From NCBI GenBank assembly GCA_000999095.1, contig LCFP01000007.1, positions 5,013 through 69,012 on the forward strand: 64,000 bases of DNA, read 5' to 3'. How positions within the stretch are numbered: position 1 is the first letter of the stretch; each line of letters opens with the position of its first letter. The position numbers and the translations under genes were made by a program. Below are positions 21,305 through 31,464 of the stretch, in pieces. The notes beneath the pieces were generated by a model that was given only the letters and a program-made list of their open reading frames with translations, had not been told where the DNA came from and did no database searches. Origin of the DNA: Candidatus Gottesmanbacteria bacterium GW2011_GWA2_43_14 (GTDB lineage Bacteria > Patescibacteriota > Microgenomatia > 2-02-FULL-39-11).

Positions 21305-22069
21305 ATGACTGTTATCGCAGAGACACTTACTCCAAGAATAGAATTAAATGTTGTTTCTCCTGATAAAAATAATTTACCACTTCACGGTTTAGAAGTAATT
21401 ATCGGAAATCACGATTTTATATTGCCTTATATTGATGTGGCAAAAAAGGGGGAAGGTCATACTTTAATTCCCTTTTTTGATCCCAGACCGGCAGTTAATC
21501 ATGATTTAATGTTGGCTGGTGCAAGGGAGTTGGCCATCGGATTAGTTAATTCAGGAGCAGATGTTGTTTTTACTCCAAAATCAAAAAAATCCGTACCTAT
21601 GATAATAGAAACAGTAAAAATTGCGGGTGAGATATCCGGTAAAAAGATAAAGTTATTTGTAATAAAAAGGGGACTGCTTTCTGATTTTGATGAAACAGAT
21701 GAAAAACCGATAGATTTTGAAACTATTACTCCTCCATATAAGAAATATATGGCTTTAAGTAAAGTTCAGACTTTAGAGATACAACAAATGCAGAAAGAAT
21801 TTATAAATCAGGGAAGAAAAATAAATGCAGTCATAGCTGATGATGTTATCAGTCGTGGGGGTACGGTTAGGGCATTAAGAAAGGTAGTTGGTAAGGTGTT
21901 AAATTATGAAGATTTTGAAATTCCTGCTTATGCTGTAATCCAGGAATTTCCGATTACTTGGGGATTGGGGCAGATACCCGGTGGGCCCAAAATTGATGGA
22001 GGAATATGGACTCCTGAACCGCAGGAATATAATTATCCCGCCATTATGACTCCGGTCATCATAGGATAA
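21305..22069 (+). CDS. Type I phosphoribosyltransferase-fold protein (254 aa).
   Basis: AVIADDVISRGGTVRAL matches the PRPP-binding motif (hhhhDDhhxxGGT). It lies in a purine context. Confidence 0.5.
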   Translation: MTVIAETLTPRIELNVVSPDKNNLPLHGLEVIIGNHDFILPYIDVAKKGEGHTLIPFFDPRPAVNHDLMLAGARELAIGLVNSGADVVFTPKSKKSVPMIIETVKIAGEISGKKIKLFVIKRGLLSDFDETDEKPIDFETITPPYKKYMALSKVQTLEIQQMQKEFINQGRKINAVIADDVISRGGTVRALRKVVGKVLNYEDFEIPAYAVIQEFPITWGLGQIPGGPKIDGGIWTPEPQEYNYPAIMTPVIIG

Positions 22070-22071
22070 AT

Positions 22072-22296
22072 ATGCCTAATACGAGTGAATTTCCTTCATC
22101 TTTATATAAAATTTACGGAAGTGAAATTCCAGGGGGTGTAGTTGCTCCATGTGGATCATGCGGCCAACCGGATGCGCAACTTGCGGCGACCAGAATAATT
22201 TATCAACCAACTGAAGCCGGGAAATTTTTTGGAGCGGAACTAAAATCAGAAATTATTTCCGGCGGACATTCAGGTTGCAAAGGGAACGGTGGGTAG
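22072..22296 (+). CDS. Small hypothetical protein (74 aa).
   Basis: It is tightly coupled, starting 2 nt after the PRTase stop. There is no homology evidence. Confidence 0.25.
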   Translation: MPNTSEFPSSLYKIYGSEIPGGVVAPCGSCGQPDAQLAATRIIYQPTEAGKFFGAELKSEIISGGHSGCKGNGG

Positions 22297-22353
22297 AGTG
22301 AATAAAAAATTAATTGACATAGGTTATTTTATAGGCTAGAAGTAATAGCAATT

Positions 22354-23634
22354 ATGCAGGTTGAATTAACTTCTTTTAATTTAGAGAAAGCTATAGGATT
22401 GCCTCCGGAAGGAATAATTTTCACCCGACCTGAAGTGGCAACTATTAATCCGTTTCTGTTTTCGTCGGATGAATTCAGGACCCGTTTGGTTTTAAAAGAT
22501 GATCAAGTCGCATTTGACCCGGTATTTTTGTATGACTTGTTCGTTATTTCCCAAGCTATTGATGAAACAATAAATCAGAATGCCTCAGTTTTTCCGGATA
22601 TAAAGGACCAGGTGGGGAAGGGAGAATTCCGAGAACTGGTCAGACTGCATGATTCTGAAAAAATGAAGCAGGTGCAGAAAAATTTCATACGCACTCTTAA
22701 AACAGCCCGGGAAGACGTTGAAGAACAGGGACGAAAAGTGGTCATGGCTTTTCCTATATGGGGGTCACTGGCTATCATGAGGGCCATGGAGCGGGAACAA
22801 ATACCTCAGGAAGTTCTTCAACCTGCGGATATATCAGGATCACTGGGTACTGAAACAGGACACGCCAAAGCGGAAAAACTTGCTCCTGAATTGTTGGATC
22901 CTGAGAAAGTCGTTTTTTTCCCGGATGATATCTTTGACACCTGCGTAACTTTAATTGAATTAGGTATTGAAAGAGCAAAAGTAAAAGTAGCAAGAAATGG
23001 GTTAAAAATAAATCACGATATTTTTCAGGACGTTGAAGCTTTCGAGGATAAAATGAGATTAGCCAGAAAAGGTTTATTATCGCAAGAAGAGACGGTCAAA
23101 GTCTGGAAGGATTTGGCAGAATTGTTATGGGAAGTAGATATAATTTCTGCCCCTTTTTCAATTAAAAATCCGCCTTTTGCTGATGCGGTTATTACACTTT
23201 CAACTAAAGTTTGGAAGGATCCTGATTCTTCGGATTGGGACAGAAAGAAAGCAGCAATTCAAGGACAACTGATGTTTCAAACTCATTACATTAATCCGGA
23301 CAACTGGATCATCGGCGGGCGATGGGAAGGAATTCCTTTATTGGATACGAAAGTTAGCGGAAAGACTGTCATGGATTTACTTGCCCGAGATCAGGAAAAG
23401 TATTTGATCACAGAAAAACAATTAAGAAACCTTCAGCAAGCCGGGCTAGACATTCTGAGCTTCAGGGCATTTTCCGGATTGGACGGTTTGTGGGTATTTA
23501 ATCCGGATGGTTTAAACGTAGATAAAGTTAGTGATAATTTCGACAGGGATCTGCTTCCTGAAAATCAGTTGGTTCAGCTTTATGCGGGGTATATTTCAGC
23601 CTATGCTCAAAAACGCTGGCCTGAAATAAATTAA
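22354..23634 (+). CDS. Hypothetical protein (426 aa).
   Basis: A long ORF in the cluster with no recognisable domains. There is a weak PRTase-like patch, VVFFPDDIFDTCVTL. Confidence 0.5.
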   Translation: MQVELTSFNLEKAIGLPPEGIIFTRPEVATINPFLFSSDEFRTRLVLKDDQVAFDPVFLYDLFVISQAIDETINQNASVFPDIKDQVGKGEFRELVRLHDSEKMKQVQKNFIRTLKTAREDVEEQGRKVVMAFPIWGSLAIMRAMEREQIPQEVLQPADISGSLGTETGHAKAEKLAPELLDPEKVVFFPDDIFDTCVTLIELGIERAKVKVARNGLKINHDIFQDVEAFEDKMRLARKGLLSQEETVKVWKDLAELLWEVDIISAPFSIKNPPFADAVITLSTKVWKDPDSSDWDRKKAAIQGQLMFQTHYINPDNWIIGGRWEGIPLLDTKVSGKTVMDLLARDQEKYLITEKQLRNLQQAGLDILSFRAFSGLDGLWVFNPDGLNVDKVSDNFDRDLLPENQLVQLYAGYISAYAQKRWPEIN

Positions 23635-23717: not shown

Positions 23718-25262
23718 ATGCCTCAAGAGGCAGTTAAACCTTTTTATAAACGCCATGACGAATATCTTCGGAATCAGCATGAAACCGGTCTGCCTCCGGT
23801 CGGTTTAACCTTTGAGGATACTCTTATTTTGCCCGCACATTCAACAATTCCTTCAAGAAAGGACGGAAGCATCAGTTTACTTTCACATATTGCCGTAGAT
23901 GTTTATGTGAATTCTCCTATCATGACATCAAATATGGATACGATTACGGAGTGGCGGATGGCTGAAAGAGTGGCATTGTTGGGAGGAGTGGGAGTGATAC
24001 ACCGCTATTTAACATCAGATGAACAGGCGAGACAGGTTAAGCTGGTAAAGGACAGGACGCGTACTTTTCAGGACCGACCTTTTTCCGTTTATCCAGAAGC
24101 AACCATAAAAGATATGAGGAAATTGCAGAAAGATCATAAAACCGGATATTTTTTGGTTCAGGATTTGGAAAATAACCTTTTAGGAATTGTGACTGACAGG
24201 GATTTGGAAAGTACCGATGACCATCATACCCAGGCATTTAATATAATGACACCCCGTGATCAGTTGGTTACAGTTCCGGAAGGTACAACTCCTGAAGAGG
24301 CTGAAAATGTGATGAAAGTGTATAGAAAACAGAAAGTGCCGGTTTTGTCTGCTGACGGAAAAGTCGTGGGAGTATATACCAGAAAAGATTTTGAATTGGC
24401 AAAGAAATACCCGAGCGCTTCCAGGGACAAAAAAGGTAAGTTAATTGTTGGGGCAGCTGTCGGAGTAAAAGACGCAGATGCTGAAACTGAAAGGGCTTAT
24501 AAATTGGTGGATGCGGGCGTTGATTTTCTTATCATCGATATCGCGCACGGTGACAGTGAAAACATGATGAAAATGCTTAAAAGATTAACCAAAGATAAAT
24601 ATATTAATGTCCCTGTTATTGCCGGTAATATCGCTACCGGTGAAGCGGCAGAGGCATTAATCGGGGAGGGAGCTGATGGATTAAAGGTAGGAATAGGGCC
24701 TGGTTGGGCTTGTGATACCAGAGTTGTTGCAGGTGTGGGAAGGGCTCAGTTATCAGCTATAGCCAGTGTTGCGGCCGTGGCTGTTGGTAAAAATATTGCA
24801 GTTATTGCCGATGGGGGAATGCGGAACCCGGGGGATCTGGTTAAAGCGCTGGTTGCCGGAGCTGATATCGGCATGTTTGGAGGAATGTTCGCGGGTACGG
24901 AAGAAACCCCGGGTATAATAATAAAAAGAGGCAATAAAAAATATAAAAGATACGTAGGAATGGCATCAAGGGAAGCTAGAAAGAGGGCTAAATACGCACA
25001 ACAACCTGTTCAAACAATCGGACTGTATGAAGATCGTTTTTCTGATCAGGATGCAGAGGATGAAGAGCCTGCTCCCGAAGGAAGGGAAAAAGAAATACCT
25101 TTCCGCGGACCTGCAACTGATGTCTTTAAATTTATTGAAGGTGGTGTCAGATCGGGCATGAGCTATATTGATGCAAAAACTATCCCTGAAATAAGGGAAA
25201 AAGGAGAATTGGAAAGAATTACTCAAGCGGGTGCGACAGAACAATACGGTGATATAAGTTAG
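23718..25262 (+). CDS. Divergent IMP dehydrogenase-like protein with a CBS pair (514 aa).
   Basis: GGVGVIHRY and a CBS segment GIVTDRDL. The catalytic loop is GIGPGWACDTR, with the Cys retained. There is a large acidic insertion near the C-terminus. Confidence 0.7.
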   Translation: MPQEAVKPFYKRHDEYLRNQHETGLPPVGLTFEDTLILPAHSTIPSRKDGSISLLSHIAVDVYVNSPIMTSNMDTITEWRMAERVALLGGVGVIHRYLTSDEQARQVKLVKDRTRTFQDRPFSVYPEATIKDMRKLQKDHKTGYFLVQDLENNLLGIVTDRDLESTDDHHTQAFNIMTPRDQLVTVPEGTTPEEAENVMKVYRKQKVPVLSADGKVVGVYTRKDFELAKKYPSASRDKKGKLIVGAAVGVKDADAETERAYKLVDAGVDFLIIDIAHGDSENMMKMLKRLTKDKYINVPVIAGNIATGEAAEALIGEGADGLKVGIGPGWACDTRVVAGVGRAQLSAIASVAAVAVGKNIAVIADGGMRNPGDLVKALVAGADIGMFGGMFAGTEETPGIIIKRGNKKYKRYVGMASREARKRAKYAQQPVQTIGLYEDRFSDQDAEDEEPAPEGREKEIPFRGPATDVFKFIEGGVRSGMSYIDAKTIPEIREKGELERITQAGATEQYGDIS

Positions 25263-25292
25263 ATATGAAAGTTGCCAAGTCACAGAGTTTTT

Positions 25293-25420
25293 GGTAAGAT
25301 AATCTCTACTTTCAGAAACCGGGAAGCTCCTGTCCCGACTTAGTCGGGACTCCGGTTTTCAGATAAAGGAGATGAACTTGATTTTGCGGCAGAGTATACC
25401 TCTGTCGTTTTTTTAATAAA
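25293..25420 (+). repeat. Copy A of a ~128-bp structured direct repeat.
   Basis: It is about 93% identical to 25859-25990. It contains the hairpin GTCCCGA..TCGGGAC, an AAGGAG-ATG mini-ORF, and the hairpin CAGAG..CTCTG followed by T7. Confidence 0.85.
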
Positions 25421-25473
25421 AGTAGAGTAGGGTTGATCAGAAATTTACGTCAAATTTCGTGATATAATGTCTG

Positions 25474-25854
25474 TTGATGGGAATTACAAAAGTAAAATTA
25501 ATAATTAAGAATCCGCAGAATCTGAGGCTTAAAATGGAAGGTGATTTTATGGTTGATTCGGGTGCTCATTATACCGTATTGACCGAGAATTTTGTTAAGA
25601 AACTTAATCTCAAGCCGTCTTTTGAACAAGAGTTTGTGTTGGCCGACGGCAATACGGTAAAAAGACCGGTTGGATCAGCGGTGATCAGGTATGGGGACCG
25701 GGAGTTGTACGTACCGGTTGTTTTGGGAGAAAAACAGGACGAGTCGCTTTTAGGGGTGACTACACTGGAAGCTTTTGGTTTGATGCTTGATCCTTTCCGC
25801 CGGAAAATCTATCCAAGCAAATTAATGCTGGGACAGTTGCGGTATATTAGGTAA
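25474..25854 (+). CDS. Retropepsin-like (clan AA) aspartic protease (126 aa).
   Basis: DSGA active-site motif (FMVDSGAHYTVL) and GVTTLEAFG near the C-terminus. It is flanked by direct repeats. Confidence 0.6.
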   Translation: MMGITKVKLIIKNPQNLRLKMEGDFMVDSGAHYTVLTENFVKKLNLKPSFEQEFVLADGNTVKRPVGSAVIRYGDRELYVPVVLGEKQDESLLGVTTLEAFGLMLDPFRRKIYPSKLMLGQLRYIR

Positions 25855-25858
25855 TCTG

Positions 25859-25990
25859 GTAAGATAATCTTTACTTTCAGAAACCGGGAAGCTCCTGTCC
25901 CGACTTAGTCGGGACTCCGGTTTTCAGATAAAGGAGATGAACTTAAATTTTACGGCAGAGTTTATCTCTGTCGTTTTTTTATTAAAAATA
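25859..25990 (+). repeat. Copy B of the ~128-bp structured repeat, sitting in the rpsB leader.
   Basis: See copy A. It ends 18 nt before the rpsB ATG. Its mini-ORF runs into the rpsB start. Confidence 0.85.
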
Positions 25991-26007
25991 GCCGTGGAGG
26001 ATTTATC

Positions 26008-26901
26008 ATGAAAGAAATATCTTTGACAGAACTCCTGGAAGCAGGCTGCCATTTCGGGCACAAAGTCACCCGCTGGCACCCGAAGGCATCTGTATTTATC
26101 TATCAGCCGCGTGAAGGCGTCCATATTATCGATCTGGTCAAAACCAAACAGGGATTGCAGAAGGCAGCCGAGTTTGTCTATGAACTGGGCAAATCAGGCA
26201 AAATTTTACTTTTGGTCGGCTCAAAAAGACAGGCAAAGGGAGTTGTCTCCGAAGCGGCCAAAAGGGTCGGCCTTCCCTTTATGACCAACCGTTGGATCGG
26301 CGGCTTCATCACCAATTGGGAAGAGGTGAAAAAAAACATCGACAAGATGAATAACTGGCGCAAAGACAGGGATTCAAAAGTCTGGGACCAGTATCCGAAG
26401 CATGAGGTGGTCAAGTTGGGCAAACTCCTACGCCAGGTGGAATCAGTTTACAGCGGAGTCGAAAGCCTGACCCGCGTTCCCGACGCTGTTTTTATCGTCG
26501 ACATCAACAAGGAAGTGGCCGCTCTAAGGGAAGCAACCAGGCGCAAGGTCGATGTGGTGGCTATCGTTGACACCAATGCCAATCCGACCCTGGTCGACTA
26601 CCCGGTTCCGGCCAATGACGATGCCGTAGGCTCGATCCAGTTTCTGGTTAATTATCTGGTTGAAGCATACGATGAGGGCAGGAAATTGAGTCAGAAAGCG
26701 GAAGCTAAAAAAGCCGGAGTCAAAGAGCCGGAAAAGGAGCTTAATGCGGAAGAAAAAAAAGCAGTGGTAGAGGAGGTAAAACCGAAAGAGGATATAAAAG
26801 CCAAACCTGAAAAAAAAGAGCTTAAAAAAGAACCTCCAGCCAAAATAAAGAAGGCGAAAAAACCGGTAAAAAAAGCTGCCGTAAAGAAGGGAGCCAAATA
26901 A
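26008..26901 (+). CDS. rpsB: 30S ribosomal protein S2 with a ~60-aa Lys-rich C-terminal extension.
   Basis: CHFGHKVTRWHPK and related S2 core motifs, plus a KKAKKPVKKAAVKK tail. Confidence 0.9.
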   Translation: MKEISLTELLEAGCHFGHKVTRWHPKASVFIYQPREGVHIIDLVKTKQGLQKAAEFVYELGKSGKILLLVGSKRQAKGVVSEAAKRVGLPFMTNRWIGGFITNWEEVKKNIDKMNNWRKDRDSKVWDQYPKHEVVKLGKLLRQVESVYSGVESLTRVPDAVFIVDINKEVAALREATRRKVDVVAIVDTNANPTLVDYPVPANDDAVGSIQFLVNYLVEAYDEGRKLSQKAEAKKAGVKEPEKELNAEEKKAVVEEVKPKEDIKAKPEKKELKKEPPAKIKKAKKPVKKAAVKKGAK

Positions 26902-26957
26902 TACCTGTTTCAATTGACGACATCAAAAAACTGCGGGAAAAGACCGGCGGAGGAGTC

Positions 26958-27362
26958 ATGGAATGCCGCAAAGCCCTTGAAGAAACCAAAGGAGATTTTA
27001 AAAAAGCCGAGGCGCTTCTGACCAAATGGGGGATAGAACGGTCTGAAAAAAAGGTTGACCGCGAAACCAAAGCCGGGCACATCGATTCCTATATCCATGC
27101 CGGAGGCAAGGTCGGGGTTCTTCTGGAACTTCTTTGCGAGACGGATTTTGTGGCCAGGACCGATGATTTTAAGAGACTTTCACACGAATTGTGTCTGCAA
27201 ATTTCCAGCATGGAACCAAAAGACGTAAAGACACTTCTAAAGCAGGAATATATCCGTGACCCGAAAATAAAAATTGAGGATTTGGTAAAGGCGGTAATCG
27301 GTAAACTTGGAGAAAACATTACCATTGCCCGTTTCACCCGCTTCAAACTCGGCGAAAAATAA
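26958..27362 (+). CDS. tsf: Elongation factor Ts, short form.
   Basis: MECRKALEETKGDFKKAEALL is the EF-Ts N-terminal domain, and TDFVAR is present. The in-frame upstream codons (SIDDIKKLREKTGGGV, 26910-26957) also look like EF-Ts but contain no canonical start. Confidence 0.7.
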   Translation: MECRKALEETKGDFKKAEALLTKWGIERSEKKVDRETKAGHIDSYIHAGGKVGVLLELLCETDFVARTDDFKRLSHELCLQISSMEPKDVKTLLKQEYIRDPKIKIEDLVKAVIGKLGENITIARFTRFKLGEK

Positions 27363-27365
27363 ATC

Positions 27366-27400
27366 AACCTGGGAGGTAGCGCAGATACGCAACCTAGGGG
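27366..27400 (+). repeat. REP-like palindromic element, copy 1.
   Basis: AACCTGGGAGGTAGCGCAGATACGCAACCTAGGGG, located between the convergent genes tsf and the TraD-like gene. Confidence 0.7.
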
Positions 27401-29604
27401 GTAGTGACCATTTTTTCATCCTTACTTTTGGCCTTTTTGGTGTAGCGTTCTTTGGAAAGGCGCATCACTTTTTCCCTGTTCTGGTTAATGGATTTGGGCA
27501 AAGGCAAAGTGACGGCATGGAAGGGCAGGGATGTCAGGTTGTCGATGGCCAGCTTGATTATTATCTGGAAAGTGCCCAGGTTGACCAAATCTTCTTCTTT
27601 GTACCACTGGCCGAATTCCCTGGCCAGGTGGTGCGCATCCTGGGCGCCGATGATAAAGGAGATCAGTGTGCCGGCATTGCCGAAAATTGCCTTCTGGACG
27701 TCTTCCTCGACCTGGCCGACATACTGGTTGGCTAAAACGAGATTGAGCCGGTATTTCCGCGCCTCTGACAGGATTTTTATAAATGAGGTTGTAGCAAAAT
27801 TCTGGAACTCGTCGACATACATATAGAAATCCTTGCGTTCAGCTTCGGGCACATTGACCCGGTTCATGGCTGCCAGCTGGATTTTGGTGATGAACATGGC
27901 GCCGAGAAGTGCGGCATTGTCCTCTCCCAGTTTTCCCTGGGACAGATTGAGGATCAGTATTTTCCGGTTGTTCATGATGTCTTCCAGGTCGATGGTTGAG
28001 GTCGGATGCTCGAGGATCTGCCTGATTGTCGGCGACATGACAAACTGGCCGACTTTGTTCTGGATGGGGGCGATGGCCTCGCTTTTCAGGCGGGGATGCA
28101 TTTTGTCGTATTCATTCCTCCAGAAATTCTGCAGTATTTTGTCCTGGACTTTATTAAGGACCCGGGCGCGGAAATTCGCATCGGCCAGAAGGTCCGGCAC
28201 CATGACCAGAGTGGAATTGGGGTATTCCAGAAGAGTCAAAATGACGTTTCTCAGGATATATTCAAGCCTCGGCCCCCAGGAATAGGAATAGAGTTTGGAA
28301 AAAATGGAGACAATCCCGGAAGATATAAGTTCTTTATGCACGGGATTTTTAACTTCCAGGGGATTCATCCAGAAAGGCTGTTCCTGGTCATAAGGCTCGA
28401 GGTAGACCACATCATTCAGGCGGTAGGAAGGTACATAATCCAGTAAAATTTCCGACAGGTCCCCGTGCGGATCGATGACGCAGACTCCTTCCCGGTTGCG
28501 CATGTCATTGATGGCCATGTTGGCGATCAAAGTTGATTTGCCTGTGCCGGTTTTTCCGATTATATACATGTGTTTCCGGCGGTCATACTTTTTGACGCCG
28601 AAAGTGGTCAGGGTGTTTTTGTACTCGGCTTTGGCAAAAAAATTAATTTCCTGCTTTTCCTCATCGGACAGGTCGGTGGCGACAGGCAGATTGGGCGGCG
28701 GCTCGCCGGCCAATGATCTGCCCCAGGAAATATTTTTGATGCCGGCCAGAAGAATGGTAGGCGGGTGCCAAAGGGTAGCCAGCTCCATAGTATTTAAAAT
28801 CTGGTGGCGGGGAAAATGGCTTTTCTCCCTTTTTAATATTTTTTGGTAGGTTATATCCTTGAAAAACCAGCGTGGGCGCTTGAGAATAAAGCGGTTGCCT
28901 TCCCCCAGGGCAAAGGCGCCGAAAGCCCCGGCCAGATTGTACATCTGGGCATAAGCCTGTTGTCGGGTGGGGGCTCCGATCAGTATCCTGATATAAGTGC
29001 GGTAGCCGGTATGGTTGACTTTTTCTTCGATCAGTCGGGCCAGCGGAAACGGCCGGGTTTTGTCGGGCGCCCGGGGGCTCGGATCAGGCATGCCTTTTTG
29101 CAGCATCGATGCCACCATCCTCTGCCAGTTGAAATGCGGCGGTTCGATAACGATCTGGATCAGCCCCGATTCATCTTTGGAAAATTTGGAAAAGACGCCG
29201 ATTATGGAAGAGAGGGGATCGAGCTCCTTGAAATCTTTATAGGTGCGGATCGGGTAATAGAAATAGCTGGCAAGCATCAGATTGCCGATGGCCAGATACT
29301 TGCTTTTGATGATGTTTGACAGATAATCGGGTACTTTGCTGATGAGGATTTTGGGATACTGGCTGGTTATCTGGCTTTCCAGAAAAGTCTGGAATGACTT
29401 CGGTATGACGGAATAAAAATGAACACTTTGATTATAGGAAGCAATTTCAAAAGAGAGAGTCCTGACTTTTATCCAGAGCCTTTTCCAGTGGGGGATATGC
29501 CCGCCCGGAAAAAGTGAGGAAAAGACCTGGGTCATCATCTCCGGAGACTCTTCGCCTGTTTTGGATGATTTAATTTCCAGGACGACTTTAGATTCGGCTG
29601 CCAT
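27394..29604 (-). CDS. TraD/VirD4/HerA-FtsK-superfamily P-loop ATPase (about 736 aa).
   Basis: Walker A GKTGTGKST, Walker B FYMYVDEFQNF, and ARKYRLNLVLANQ. The start is taken at the ATG at 29604 (MAAESK...), because the longer ORF overlaps the divergent gene's promoter. Confidence 0.55.
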   Translation of the reverse strand: MAAESKVVLEIKSSKTGEESPEMMTQVFSSLFPGGHIPHWKRLWIKVRTLSFEIASYNQSVHFYSVIPKSFQTFLESQITSQYPKILISKVPDYLSNIIKSKYLAIGNLMLASYFYYPIRTYKDFKELDPLSSIIGVFSKFSKDESGLIQIVIEPPHFNWQRMVASMLQKGMPDPSPRAPDKTRPFPLARLIEEKVNHTGYRTYIRILIGAPTRQQAYAQMYNLAGAFGAFALGEGNRFILKRPRWFFKDITYQKILKREKSHFPRHQILNTMELATLWHPPTILLAGIKNISWGRSLAGEPPPNLPVATDLSDEEKQEINFFAKAEYKNTLTTFGVKKYDRRKHMYIIGKTGTGKSTLIANMAINDMRNREGVCVIDPHGDLSEILLDYVPSYRLNDVVYLEPYDQEQPFWMNPLEVKNPVHKELISSGIVSIFSKLYSYSWGPRLEYILRNVILTLLEYPNSTLVMVPDLLADANFRARVLNKVQDKILQNFWRNEYDKMHPRLKSEAIAPIQNKVGQFVMSPTIRQILEHPTSTIDLEDIMNNRKILILNLSQGKLGEDNAALLGAMFITKIQLAAMNRVNVPEAERKDFYMYVDEFQNFATTSFIKILSEARKYRLNLVLANQYVGQVEEDVQKAIFGNAGTLISFIIGAQDAHHLAREFGQWYKEEDLVNLGTFQIIIKLAIDNLTSLPFHAVTLPLPKSINQNREKVMRLSKERYTKKAKSKDEKMVTTP

Positions 29605-29673
29605 GTGGTTTAAGTATAGATTTTCCCTGTGCAAATTAAAAGTTGTATAATCACGCGAATCCGAAGGTCTTAT

Positions 29674-31464
29674 ATGGAAAATGAAGCCAGGAATCAATTG
29701 ATATTAAAACTAAGCCATAATTTTGAATTTGCCACTGCCAGTCTAGATCAATTTTATACAGACTTTTTGGAAAATAATTTGGAGATAAAAGACAAAGTAG
29801 ATACTTTTGCAAAAAGAGTAAATGCTTTATATGGCGGGCAGGAAGCAAGCTATATCGAACACGCATTGAAATTGGCAGTTATAAGTTATCAGTATAATTG
29901 GGATTCTTTAAAACATTACCGAAAATCTCCAACACCGGAAGGGAAAAAAGTTCCAACGCTTTTCCATTCATTGGAAATGGCAGACAAACTGCTTGACGGG
30001 GACGGCCGTGATGATAAGCCCTTCCGCTGGGAAGCTGTAGCCGCCATTTTAATGCATGATATTCCTGAGGATGTGGAAATGGTATTTGTAGAAAACGGGG
30101 GTGAATTTCAGGTAAAAGGAGAAAAATGGTTCGATTTAATTCGTGATTCTTTTGAAACGACCGGTAAAGCTGATTTAATAGTTGATCTGATAAAAGGGGT
30201 AACAGAGAGAAAAATTCCTGATAGGTATAGCGAAGAAGGGAGGGATATCAGAGAAAAAATAAAGGCAACATCAATTTTTAAGATGATTAAAGCCTATGTT
30301 GTTAACGGTCGGATAAAAGGCAGAAAAGTCTTAATGGATGTTCCGGACGTAGAATTAGAGTCGGTTTATGAGGTTGTCTTTAACTTGAATCATTTATTTG
30401 ACAGCGCACTGAGGTCTCCGGAACATCTTCAAATACTGTTATTAAAGATTACGGACATCTGGCATAACTTTCAGACACCGGATTGGGTAAAATCTTCCAA
30501 AGTACTGCGGGGCCGTCTGGCCGCTAGTTTAGCAGAATGGTTTGGTTGGTATTCTATGAGATCAGATTTAGTTACCTTATTAGGTAATGTTGCTGATACT
30601 ACCACGGCATATGCGCCGGAATTGGAATATGAGTTACTTCCCCATAGTGAATTAATGGATAAAATGCTTAAGATGGAGGAATTTGGAAATCAGTTTATTG
30701 AAACACTTAAGAAAAAAGGCATTATACCCGGGACAGCAGAATTTATTTCATCAATAGGTTTTCCGGTCGTAAACAGTGAATATGAATTGGGGAAATTTGA
30801 CGGATCAACCCTGCCAAAACCAGAATTTATAGTATCTTTTGAAAACGAGGCTTTTACGATTTTAGAGGGCGACATAAAGCAAAACTATACCACTATAAGG
30901 TTATTATTACAGAATCAGGAGGTTGCTGCAGGTGAGTCTATAGCCGGTTTAAAAATAAAAAATTACCAGGACAGCATATATTACAGAAAACTAATGGGAC
31001 GATATAGAATTGACGGAGTTTTAAAATTAGGAAACAATGAAGGATTTTTATTTAGAATGGAGAGCAATGAGCCTTATATGACTGATTACTTTAAGGAAAG
31101 ATCGGATGTAAATTATACGGAAATACCCGAATATAAGGGGTTATTTCATAATAAACTCAGGGATAAAGAAGGATGGAGGATTCATTTAAATGCACTAATA
31201 GGTTTTTTCTACGAACCAAATATGCCTTCTTCTCTGTCCAGATTGATATCTCCAGTATTTTACGACGGTTCACTTTATTTTGTTGATGGGGAGCAGACAT
31301 TTTCAGAATTAAAAGATCTATTAAATTTAAAAGCGGATATTTTGATTGATAATCCCGTAAGTTATAAAAATAAAAGAATCACCGGTAAAACTAAAGTTCG
31401 TGATTTATTTCCATCTGCAGCCAGATCTCACGTTATCAAGAGGAGAATGATTACCGTTCAATAA
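29674..31464 (+). CDS. HD-domain protein with a RelA/SpoT-type hydrolase fold and a ~350-aa unknown C-terminal region.
   Basis: YIEHALKLAVISY, AAILMHDIPEDV and KITDIWHNFQT align to SpoT HD motifs (PYITHPVAVA, ALLHDVIEDT, KLADRTHNMRT). The -10 box TGTATAAT at 29645 supports the start at 29674. Confidence 0.5.
   Translation: MENEARNQLILKLSHNFEFATASLDQFYTDFLENNLEIKDKVDTFAKRVNALYGGQEASYIEHALKLAVISYQYNWDSLKHYRKSPTPEGKKVPTLFHSLEMADKLLDGDGRDDKPFRWEAVAAILMHDIPEDVEMVFVENGGEFQVKGEKWFDLIRDSFETTGKADLIVDLIKGVTERKIPDRYSEEGRDIREKIKATSIFKMIKAYVVNGRIKGRKVLMDVPDVELESVYEVVFNLNHLFDSALRSPEHLQILLLKITDIWHNFQTPDWVKSSKVLRGRLAASLAEWFGWYSMRSDLVTLLGNVADTTTAYAPELEYELLPHSELMDKMLKMEEFGNQFIETLKKKGIIPGTAEFISSIGFPVVNSEYELGKFDGSTLPKPEFIVSFENEAFTILEGDIKQNYTTIRLLLQNQEVAAGESIAGLKIKNYQDSIYYRKLMGRYRIDGVLKLGNNEGFLFRMESNEPYMTDYFKERSDVNYTEIPEYKGLFHNKLRDKEGWRIHLNALIGFFYEPNMPSSLSRLISPVFYDGSLYFVDGEQTFSELKDLLNLKADILIDNPVSYKNKRITGKTKVRDLFPSAARSHVIKRRMITVQ

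Follow-up and report, generated by a model that had tools for sequence, protein, structure and literature searches.

Duplicated rpsB control region with a probable S2-type leader flanks a retropepsin-like protease gene in a Candidatus Gottesmanbacteria contig

We analyzed a 64,000-nucleotide stretch (the window) of contig LCFP01000007.1 (GenBank assembly GCA_000999095.1) from Candidatus Gottesmanbacteria bacterium GW2011_GWA2_43_14, in which two direct repeats flank a gene for a retropepsin-like aspartic protease immediately upstream of rpsB, the gene for ribosomal protein S2. In the reading that we consider likely, the repeats are duplicates of one rpsB control region made up of promoter, S2-type leader and terminator; the copy next to rpsB (copy B) would be the working one, and the copy upstream of the protease gene (copy A) an orphan left by insertion of that gene. 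This reading is carried by the anatomy of the two copies, by orthologous leaders in related genomes, by covariation in the leader helices, by the energetics of alternative structures and by the absence of the insertion from relatives; that S2 binds, which way the switch acts and how the insertion arose are inferred. The first-pass annotation of this DNA had proposed a ribosomal-protein autoregulatory leader, or a small RNA, duplicated together with the protease gene. Its core, an autoregulatory-type rpsB leader duplicated in connection with the protease gene, holds, while several of its supporting arguments were wrong.

The repeats and their parts

Repeat-family searches and pairwise alignment delimited cores of 134 nt (copy A) and 135 nt (copy B; Table 1) that differ by seven substitutions and one 1-nt indel (∼94% identity), close to the ∼128 bp and ∼93% first reported for this place. 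The longest run identical in both copies is 73 nt (25307–25379 and 25872–25944). Beyond the cores, a weaker similarity extends to ∼25445 in copy A and 26010 in copy B, where it takes in the Shine–Dalgarno (SD) sequence and start codon of rpsB, degenerate in copy A. The repeats lie 565 bp apart on either side of the protease gene; copy B abuts rpsB, ending 17 nt before its ATG (26008), and copy A precedes the protease gene instead. A 19-nt palindrome, GTCCCGACTTAGTCGGGAC, was found by pattern search at only two sites in the window, one per copy, against zero expected by chance. The search for more copies that had been proposed was run on the 64-kb window, and neither pattern search nor nhmmer nor a covariance model with filters off found a third.

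The duplication is real and an assembly artefact is excluded: the two copies are not identical, five contigs are on record with this gene arrangement, and an independent Logan contig (L002, run SRR29904086) begins exactly k−1 = 30 nt into the 73-nt identical run, where a k = 31 graph is expected to break at a true repeat. The contig itself is a scaffold of Gottesmanbacteria (Candidate Phyla Radiation, CPR; Microgenomates).

Both copies have a sigma-70-like promoter, of which promoter A is closer to consensus and promoter B falls under the promoter-scan threshold. Across seven aligned leaders the −35 TTG is invariant, as are −10 positions T-TG-TA--AT (TG-TAAGAT in most). The hexamer AGTTGC is found at the −35 position of both copies, followed by 16-nt spacers that are unrelated (4/16 matches; 25833–25856 versus 25269–25291). 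In copy B this segment also codes for the abnormal C-terminus of the protease described below. Downstream, two strands of a helix P1, GAAACCGGG and UCCGGUUUU, enclose an asymmetric loop, AAGCUCCU, and a second hairpin, P3 (GUCCCGAC-UUA-GUCGGGAC); z scores of this long-hairpin fold against shuffles were −3.2 and −3.9 in the two copies. On its 3′ side each copy has AGAUAAAGGAGAUG and then a 9-bp hairpin with T7, identified in both copies as an intrinsic terminator by the terminator scan (∼−13 kcal/mol). Both copies thus have the layout of an attenuator, with a G+C-rich hairpin and U tract, a promoter upstream and a gene downstream. All details first listed for each copy, namely the hairpin, an AAGGAG-ATG mini open reading frame (mini-ORF) of 14–24 codons and the hairpin with T7, are present.

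Orthologous leaders and covariation

S2 relatives were gathered from genome contigs, from protein homologs and the contigs encoding them, and by one metagenome scan with a degenerate element pattern, in which two of the 14 hits (L097 and L101) were chance matches in coding sequence and were discarded. The resulting set comprised 12 distinct versions of the element: the two window copies and 10 from related Gottesmanbacteria/Microgenomates contigs, designated here by L numbers. In the relatives the element is single-copy and lies directly 5′ of rpsB (L010, L083, L084, L085–L088, L089, L098, L102, L103, L104, and L106). The protease gene was absent from the rpsB-leader locus in all relatives examined, a comparison suggested at first pass that ties the duplication to the protease gene. 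In L089, the 3′ end of the IMP dehydrogenase (IMPDH) gene, a single leader and rpsB follow one another, which is the order of the window minus the insertion.

P1 (9 bp) and P3 (7–8 bp) covary: across the 12 sequences, 12 of their 16 pairs have changed in both partners, with pairing in 96% of cells, and sliding the partner strand by 1–3 columns always gave far worse pairing. RNAalifold, the folding check that had been advised, independently returned the same two helices from the 12 sequences. The CUCCU strand of the loop and the AGGAG 3′ of P1 are invariant and perfectly complementary in 12/12 sequences and may pair as a pseudoknot. MAFFT alignments failed to hold the registers of the variable P3 and of the pseudoknot/antiterminator; the pseudoknot of canonical S2 leaders and the antiterminator described below were assessed by scripts rather than by alignment. 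The conserved position of the orthologs and the covariation of P1 and P3 support the initial view of copy B as the structured, autoregulatory-type 5′ leader of rpsB.

The orthologs fall into two arrangements. In L085, L098, L102, and L104 (type I leaders), 5 nt separate AAGGAG from the rpsB ATG downstream. The window, L083, L084, L089, L010, and L106 have a terminator in between, and their rpsB carries a new SD or none. The stem and loop of terminator B are near-identical in L083, L084, and L089, and L010 and L106 have other sequences of the same design, three different sequence versions across the relatives.

A predicted antiterminator

In some of the leaders with a terminator, the pseudoknot 3′ strand and linker, GAU..GGAGAU(G/A)AACUU, can form an alternative hairpin of 12–15 bp with the terminator loop and 3′ arm, GAGUUUAUCUCUGUC. 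In copy B the upstream strand reads GAU..GGAGAUGAACUU, and its pairing is mutually exclusive with both the pseudoknot and the terminator. The energies of the two competing hairpins in copy B are close (Table 2), and 0/400 shuffles were as stable as the antiterminator. Enforcing the helices gave energies similar to those of Table 2. Mutually exclusive helices of this kind were found in copy B and four orthologs (L083, L084, L089, and L010); antiterminator and terminator are near-isoenergetic in copy B, L083, and L010, and 2–4 kcal/mol apart in L089 and L084. L010, with its other terminator sequence, has compensating changes (AUAAUA:UAUUAU versus AUAAA:UUUAU). Another candidate antiterminator, formed by CUCCUGUC and the terminator 5′ arm, was dropped, being conserved in neither L083 nor L010. 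Given that no other promoter-like site was seen between the terminator and the rpsB ATG, the terminator must be read through, and we infer that transcription attenuation in the window clade may be controlled by S2.

Table 2. Energies of the alternative hairpin and the terminator (kcal/mol); z is relative to a shuffled upstream segment
Leader	Alternative hairpin	Terminator	z
Copy B	−13.9	−14.1	−4.4
L083	−13.4	−15.9	−5.3
L084	−14.2	−17.9	−4.6
L089	−10.7	−13.3	−2.8
L010	−12.7	−14.0	−3.8
L106	−10.4	−17.4	−1.0
Copy A	−5.6	−13.5	−0.2

The two copies are not equivalent

Differences between copies A and B were polarised with L083, L084, and L089 as outgroups. On the copy A side, the derived changes are one close to the 5′ end, both substitutions in the terminator loop (UUUAU became UAUAC) and the decay of the relic SD and ATG; on the copy B side, they are two linker changes and, at the terminator stem base, a G·U pair that became A-U. 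In copy A, the loop substitutions keep the terminator stem and cut the antiterminator to shuffle level (Table 2). Because they spare the one structure and destroy the other, copy A would act as a constitutive terminator, and it is most likely a promoter, an aptamer and such a terminator, an orphan by-product of the insertion.

The first-pass annotation had taken the stem-sparing differences in this second hairpin as a sign of selection on RNA structure. They amount to two loop substitutions and one G·U to A-U change, and the loop substitutions are derived in copy A and break an antiterminator conserved in the orthologs. The argument therefore fails, and the real structural evidence comes from the orthologs.

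The protease cassette and its insertion

The protein encoded between the repeats scored 40.6 bits against PF13975 (cutoff 28.2) and 58.5 bits against the NCBIfam model TIGR03698 (cutoff 57.35). Among 13 aligned sequences (the window protein and 12 homologs), the DSGA residues D28 and G30 do not vary, and S29 and A31 hardly do. There were 131 homologs at E ≤ 1e-3, and the few named by taxon are Gottesmanbacteria, Roizmanbacteria or Patescibacteria. As judged from these matches the family appears to be common in CPR, and the remark that a DSGA protease is unusual for bacteria does not stand. Homologs are typically ∼119 amino acids (aa) long, start with MGxTKVKL and end in ...SKLMLG. Alignment with them places the start of the window gene at ATG 25477; gene callers pick a later ATG. 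The window protein resembles other clan AA proteases (TIGR03698/PF13975/PF13650) in its scores against curated cutoffs, its DSGA motif and its MGxTKVKL N-terminus. Unlike its homologs, it has a 6-aa C-terminal extension, QLRYIR, reading six codons into the right junction, and its gene sits inside an rpsB control region. The extension results from loss of the family's usual stop at the insertion junction.

DNA homology to the cassette of L095 spans 25444–25832, starting where the similarity of copy A to the rpsB start ends. In homologous cassettes a −10-like box is found 6–12 nt before the ATG, with no SD (L095:600–633; L090:1700–1744; L096:950–986), and the window cassette has the same layout (Table 1), which suggests that TIGR03698 protease genes may be expressed from leaderless or near-leaderless mRNAs. 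These cassettes occur in variable small-gene contexts with toxin–antitoxin genes, DUF433/DUF5615 pairs and a Y1 (IS200-like) transposase. Neither a leader copy nor rpsB was found beside the protease homologs at seven homolog loci.

The arrangement of the window is ancestral left flank (IMPDH), leader, cassette, leader and ancestral right flank (rpsB). We propose that the leader was parted from the rpsB start by entry of a ∼390–410-bp protease cassette that brought a promoter of its own, and that copy A arose in this event. Either a target of ∼135–155 bp would have been duplicated, or a circle carrying a leader copy would have integrated by a single crossover. The outcome is like that of Campbell-type single-crossover integration or duplication-insertion, with inserted DNA between two copies of the host target and ancestral flanks outside, and unlike them in that no recombinase, att-like core or second example is seen here. 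Two other routes were rejected. For a transposon-style target-site duplication, ∼135–155 bp is far too long, and there is no transposase. For a transposable element or integron cassette, no ORF other than the protease lies between the repeats, relatives have the repeat as a single-copy host leader, and none was found at the loci of the protease homologs.

Table 1. Features of the rpsB control region and adjacent genes in the window
Feature	Position	Strand	Details
IMP dehydrogenase gene	23718–25262	+	Pfam PF00478, E 4e-107; ancestral left neighbor of the rpsB leader
Promoter A	25272–25300	+	−35 TTGCCA, 17-nt spacer, extended −10 TGgTAAGAT; promoter scan, 9/12 matches with TG
Repeat copy A, most likely an orphan leader	25292–25425	+	P1 25315–25323/25351–25359; CUCCU 25327–25331; P3 25332–25350; AAGGAG 25366–25371; covariance model R1, 91.9 bits
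Terminator A	25386–25414	+	9-bp stem, derived loop UAUAC, T7; weak alternative hairpin (Table 2)
Degenerate rpsB SD/start relic, copy A	25426–25445	+	GTAGGGTTGATCA-G versus GGAGGATTTATCATG in copy B; alignments
Extended −10 box of protease cassette	25460–25468	+	TGATATAAT; 8 nt before ATG, no SD; read from sequence
Clan AA retropepsin-like aspartic protease gene	25477–25854	+	125 aa, catalytic DSGA; PF13975/PF13650, TIGR03698
Promoter B	25837–25865	+	−35-like TTGCGG within 3′ end of protease ORF, 17-nt spacer, TGgTAAGAT; alignment with copy A and orthologs
Repeat copy B, probable working rpsB leader	25857–25991	+	P1 25880–25888/25916–25924; CUCCU 25892–25896; P3 25897–25915; AAGGAG 25931–25936; covariance model R1, 93.9 bits
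Predicted antiterminator, copy B	25927–25972	+	GAU..GGAGAUGAACUU (25927–25944) with GAGUUUAUCUCUGUC (25958–25972)
Terminator B (attenuator)	25952–25980	+	9-bp stem, loop UUUAU, T7
rpsB	25996–26901	+	SD GGAGGA 25996–26001, ATG 26008, 297 aa; Pfam PF00318, E 3e-72
tsf (EF-Ts), co-transcribed with rpsB	26901–27362	+	PF00889 in L001 gene call; N-terminal comparison with relatives

Relation to known S2 leaders and attenuators

We compared the element with the S2 leader as described by Meyer et al. (2009; PMC2704228), Aseev et al. (2008) and Fu et al. (2013; PMC3616713) and with the Rfam family t44 (RF00127). As published (Meyer et al., 2009, PMC2704228; Fu et al., 2013, PMC3616713), the rpsB motif has a long P1, an optional P2, and a junction strand 5′ of P3 that pairs with a 3′ extension after P1, with the consensus CRCAC ... 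YRYG-GAGG; P2 is missing in Firmicutes, Cyanobacteria and most Gammaproteobacteria. The window element likewise lies in the 5′ untranslated region of rpsB-tsf, keeps the order P1 5′ strand, junction strand, P3, P1 3′ strand and then a 3′ extension that may pair back, and is without P2, as in those groups. In contrast to the known motif, the 3′ strand of its putative pseudoknot is AAGGAG, either an SD or similar to one, and the output in the window clade would be a terminator/antiterminator rather than control of the ribosome-binding site (RBS).

Canonical rpsB-motif leaders were found upstream of rpsB in many CPR genomes, for example CACACACUCGA...UAUCUCU...hairpin...UCGAGUGGCGG..AAGAGAUA-AUG. 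Around 20 CPR genomes (L003–L028) have such leaders, of the form CACAC...GUGG(C/A)GG, ∼70–170 nt upstream of rpsB (e.g., L007:2882–2950). Their junction strand pairs with the SD region in duplexes of 5–9 nt with more than 10 different sequences, a pairing that covaries. A covariance model of these canonical CPR leaders (R2) found its 16 seeds and three unseen canonical leaders, and the window-type model (R1) found no canonical leader. None of the canonical leaders was reported by Rfam 15 at gathering score, and at L007, the sole locus scanned at E ≤ 10, t44 was absent.

The first-pass annotation had counted on S2 leader motifs in Rfam; the Rfam/Infernal scan was run and no model matched. E-value scans (E ≤ 10) gave only chance-level hits to small RNAs and leaders (Hrs12, Esr41, rpsL_pseudo), t44 not among them. 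Given that both R2 and Rfam miss the window-type element, common descent with the known motif is unproven, and we file it as a lineage-specific variant that would work like an S2 leader, not as a proven member of that family.

Transcription-attenuating ribosomal-protein leaders include the E. coli L4-S10 and B. subtilis L20 infC leaders. The window element is like them in having an aptamer followed by an intrinsic terminator and a strand of the putative protein-bound structure shared with the predicted antiterminator, and unlike them in that its switch strand would be a relic SD. L10 leaders with terminators occur in Firmicutes, and the same aptamer uses RBS occlusion or a terminator depending on the species (Fu et al., 2013, PMC3616713); both mechanisms are also listed by Eckert and Weinberg. 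In the literature we found no description of an S2 leader with a terminator platform, and none in CPR.

Discussion

In the mechanism that we propose, the repeat unit would be the complete 5′ control region of rpsB-tsf, in which a promoter of the sigma-70 type is followed by a ∼65-nt leader RNA and then by an intrinsic terminator. P1 encloses a pyrimidine junction strand (GCUCCU) and P3, and AGAUAAAGGAG after P1 would pair with the junction strand as a pseudoknot, which excess free S2 may bind and stabilise by analogy with the S2-binding rpsB motif. In relatives without a terminator, AAGGAG is the SD of rpsB itself, and the pseudoknot held by S2 would occlude the RBS and block translation. In the window clade AAGGAG would have turned into a switch strand in a three-way competition: when free, it would pair, together with the linker, with the terminator loop and 3′ arm as an antiterminator and let RNA polymerase read into rpsB-tsf; when held in the pseudoknot, it would leave the terminator to form.

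Several observations weigh against this reading. The CUCCU:AGGAG pseudoknot shows no covariation, since both of its strands are invariant; the 12 sequences represent few independent lineages; and the P3 pairs were counted on an alignment (A7) that had been fitted to the model structure. L106 has no significant antiterminator, and S2 binding to the leader is a prediction by analogy with the rpsB motif. The element lacks the CRCAC and YRYG-GAGG blocks of that motif, with UUUCAGA and UUUYAGAU at the corresponding positions and UUUCAGA and AGAUWAAGGAGA invariant instead; model R2, run at E ≤ 10, hit neither the window nor any window-type locus, and Rfam 15 gave no family at gathering score on the whole window and 20 related loci. 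On the side of the duplication, the 24 nt at 25833–25856 have an origin that the insertion scheme does not explain, and the shared AGTTGC may reflect duplication, chance or convergence. Lastly, differences between the copies are unevenly spread, at 1/88 positions in the aptamer part versus 7/46 in the terminator part (Fisher p 0.002).

This uneven spread could mean that the aptamer of copy A is still constrained, or that gene conversion homogenised the 5′ part. It is the former possibility that would favor retention of copy A as a functional element, either a short decoy or buffer RNA that binds S2 or a device placing the protease under control of S2 or ribosome status via residual read-through; that promoter A is the one nearer consensus and that copy A has kept P1, P3, the terminator stem and the two pseudoknot strands intact would also fit. 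However, with repeats 565 bp apart, the 73-nt identical run is accounted for just as well by gene conversion, loss of the antiterminator makes regulated read-through into the protease gene unlikely, the cassette has its own −10 box as homologs do elsewhere, and no second copy was seen in other genomes among ∼12 distinct leaders. We therefore regard a retained function as unlikely. Quite doubtful, too, is the pair of bolder proposals that copy A has been selected as a stand-alone small RNA sponging S2, or that the rpsB leader is a homologous-recombination landing pad that moves cassettes between CPR genomes; if the sponge were true, the duplication would have turned a cis-regulatory leader into a trans-acting decoy.

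A related but improbable scenario makes the repeats the recombination sites of a mobile cassette, which would excise as a circle holding the protease gene and one leader copy and integrate by homology at the rpsB leaders of other genomes. Leader-cassette-leader is indeed the product that a single-crossover integration would give, the protease family sits in highly variable neighborhoods, and in relatives the space between IMPDH and rpsB holds other accessory genes, for example AbiEii. However, a leader copy was present at 0/7 loci of protease homologs, no cassette was seen at other rpsB leaders, the unit contains no integrase or transposase, and the occurrence in the window is the single one known.

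We consider it very improbable that translation of the mini-ORF across the terminator controls read-through or couples to rpsB. The mini-ORFs exist, with 14 and 24 codons in the two copies; the stop codon of the one in copy B, TGA, overlaps the rpsB ATG (ATGA), and in all leaders with a terminator the terminator 5′ arm lies 10–17 nt after AAGGAG, within a ribosome footprint. Nevertheless, the ATG directly abuts the SD (0-nt spacing), and the 1-nt indel puts copies A and B in different frames that encode unrelated peptides. The ancestral start position holds AUG in L089, UUG in L084 and copy A, UUU in L083 and UUA in copy B, and no start is found in L010 and L106. Given this series of codons at the old start position, the mini-ORF is best read as a decaying relic of the rpsB start and not as a conserved leader peptide; no conserved short ORF with a usable start spanning the attenuator was found. 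The initial observation of an AAGGAG-ATG mini-ORF thus holds for both copies, and its conservation does not. In L084 (1300–2193), S2 is called from the relic UUG after AAGGAG as a 297-aa protein, in frame through the terminator, so that the ORF merely fuses to rpsB; the true start is probably an internal ATG preceded by GGAAGGA.

That neither copy has an RNA function, the repeat being no more than a neutral segmental duplication or else an artefact of assembly, would fit the count of only two copies and the lack of an Rfam match but has next to no probability, given the strong covariation across orthologs, the position 5′ of rpsB conserved in every lineage, the conserved terminator/antiterminator design, the differences between the copies and the independent assembly break that supports the repeat.

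The reading of the repeats as a duplicated rpsB leader region, with copy B at work and copy A orphaned, adds a variant of a known ribosomal-protein feedback element that follows known principles, and not a new kind of system. It would extend ribosomal-protein autoregulation to a CPR lineage, with a concrete element that can be tested. One S2-leader fold would serve two output modules in close relatives, SD occlusion and a terminator/antiterminator, and the reuse of a former SD as switch strand would be a clear example of expression-platform evolution. The canonical rpsB-motif leaders, widespread in CPR yet missed by Rfam, are a practical annotation gap. Finally, the duplicate offers a natural experiment, in which the control region of an essential gene would have been split by an insertion and regenerated, leaving one copy with the full switch and the other with promoter, aptamer and terminator only.

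Neighboring genes

The product of rpsB matches exactly a protein annotated as Gottesmanbacteria S2. Window S2 has a long Lys/Glu-rich C-terminal tail that reaches up to the start region of tsf. Around 26899–26960, tsf has no canonical start where its homologs begin (MTVTVTDIKKLRE...); the in-frame codon there, ATA at 26901–26903, overlaps the rpsB stop TAA, and ATG first occurs 19 codons further on, at 26958. Convergent to tsf, on the reverse strand at 27394–29697, lies a gene for a VirD4/TraG-like coupling ATPase (TrwB_AAD_bind, DUF87; DUF8128 in relatives) that is syntenic in L002 and L085–L088. Upstream of IMPDH, 21305–23634 holds two ORFs (254 and 426 aa) with no Pfam match, the first with a phosphoribosyltransferase-like ADDVISRGGT seen by eye. 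In L085–L088 (1163–2500), whose S2 is 73% identical, an AbiEii toxin gene and small ORFs lie upstream of the leader in the IMPDH-rpsB intergenic space, where accessory genes seem to land repeatedly.

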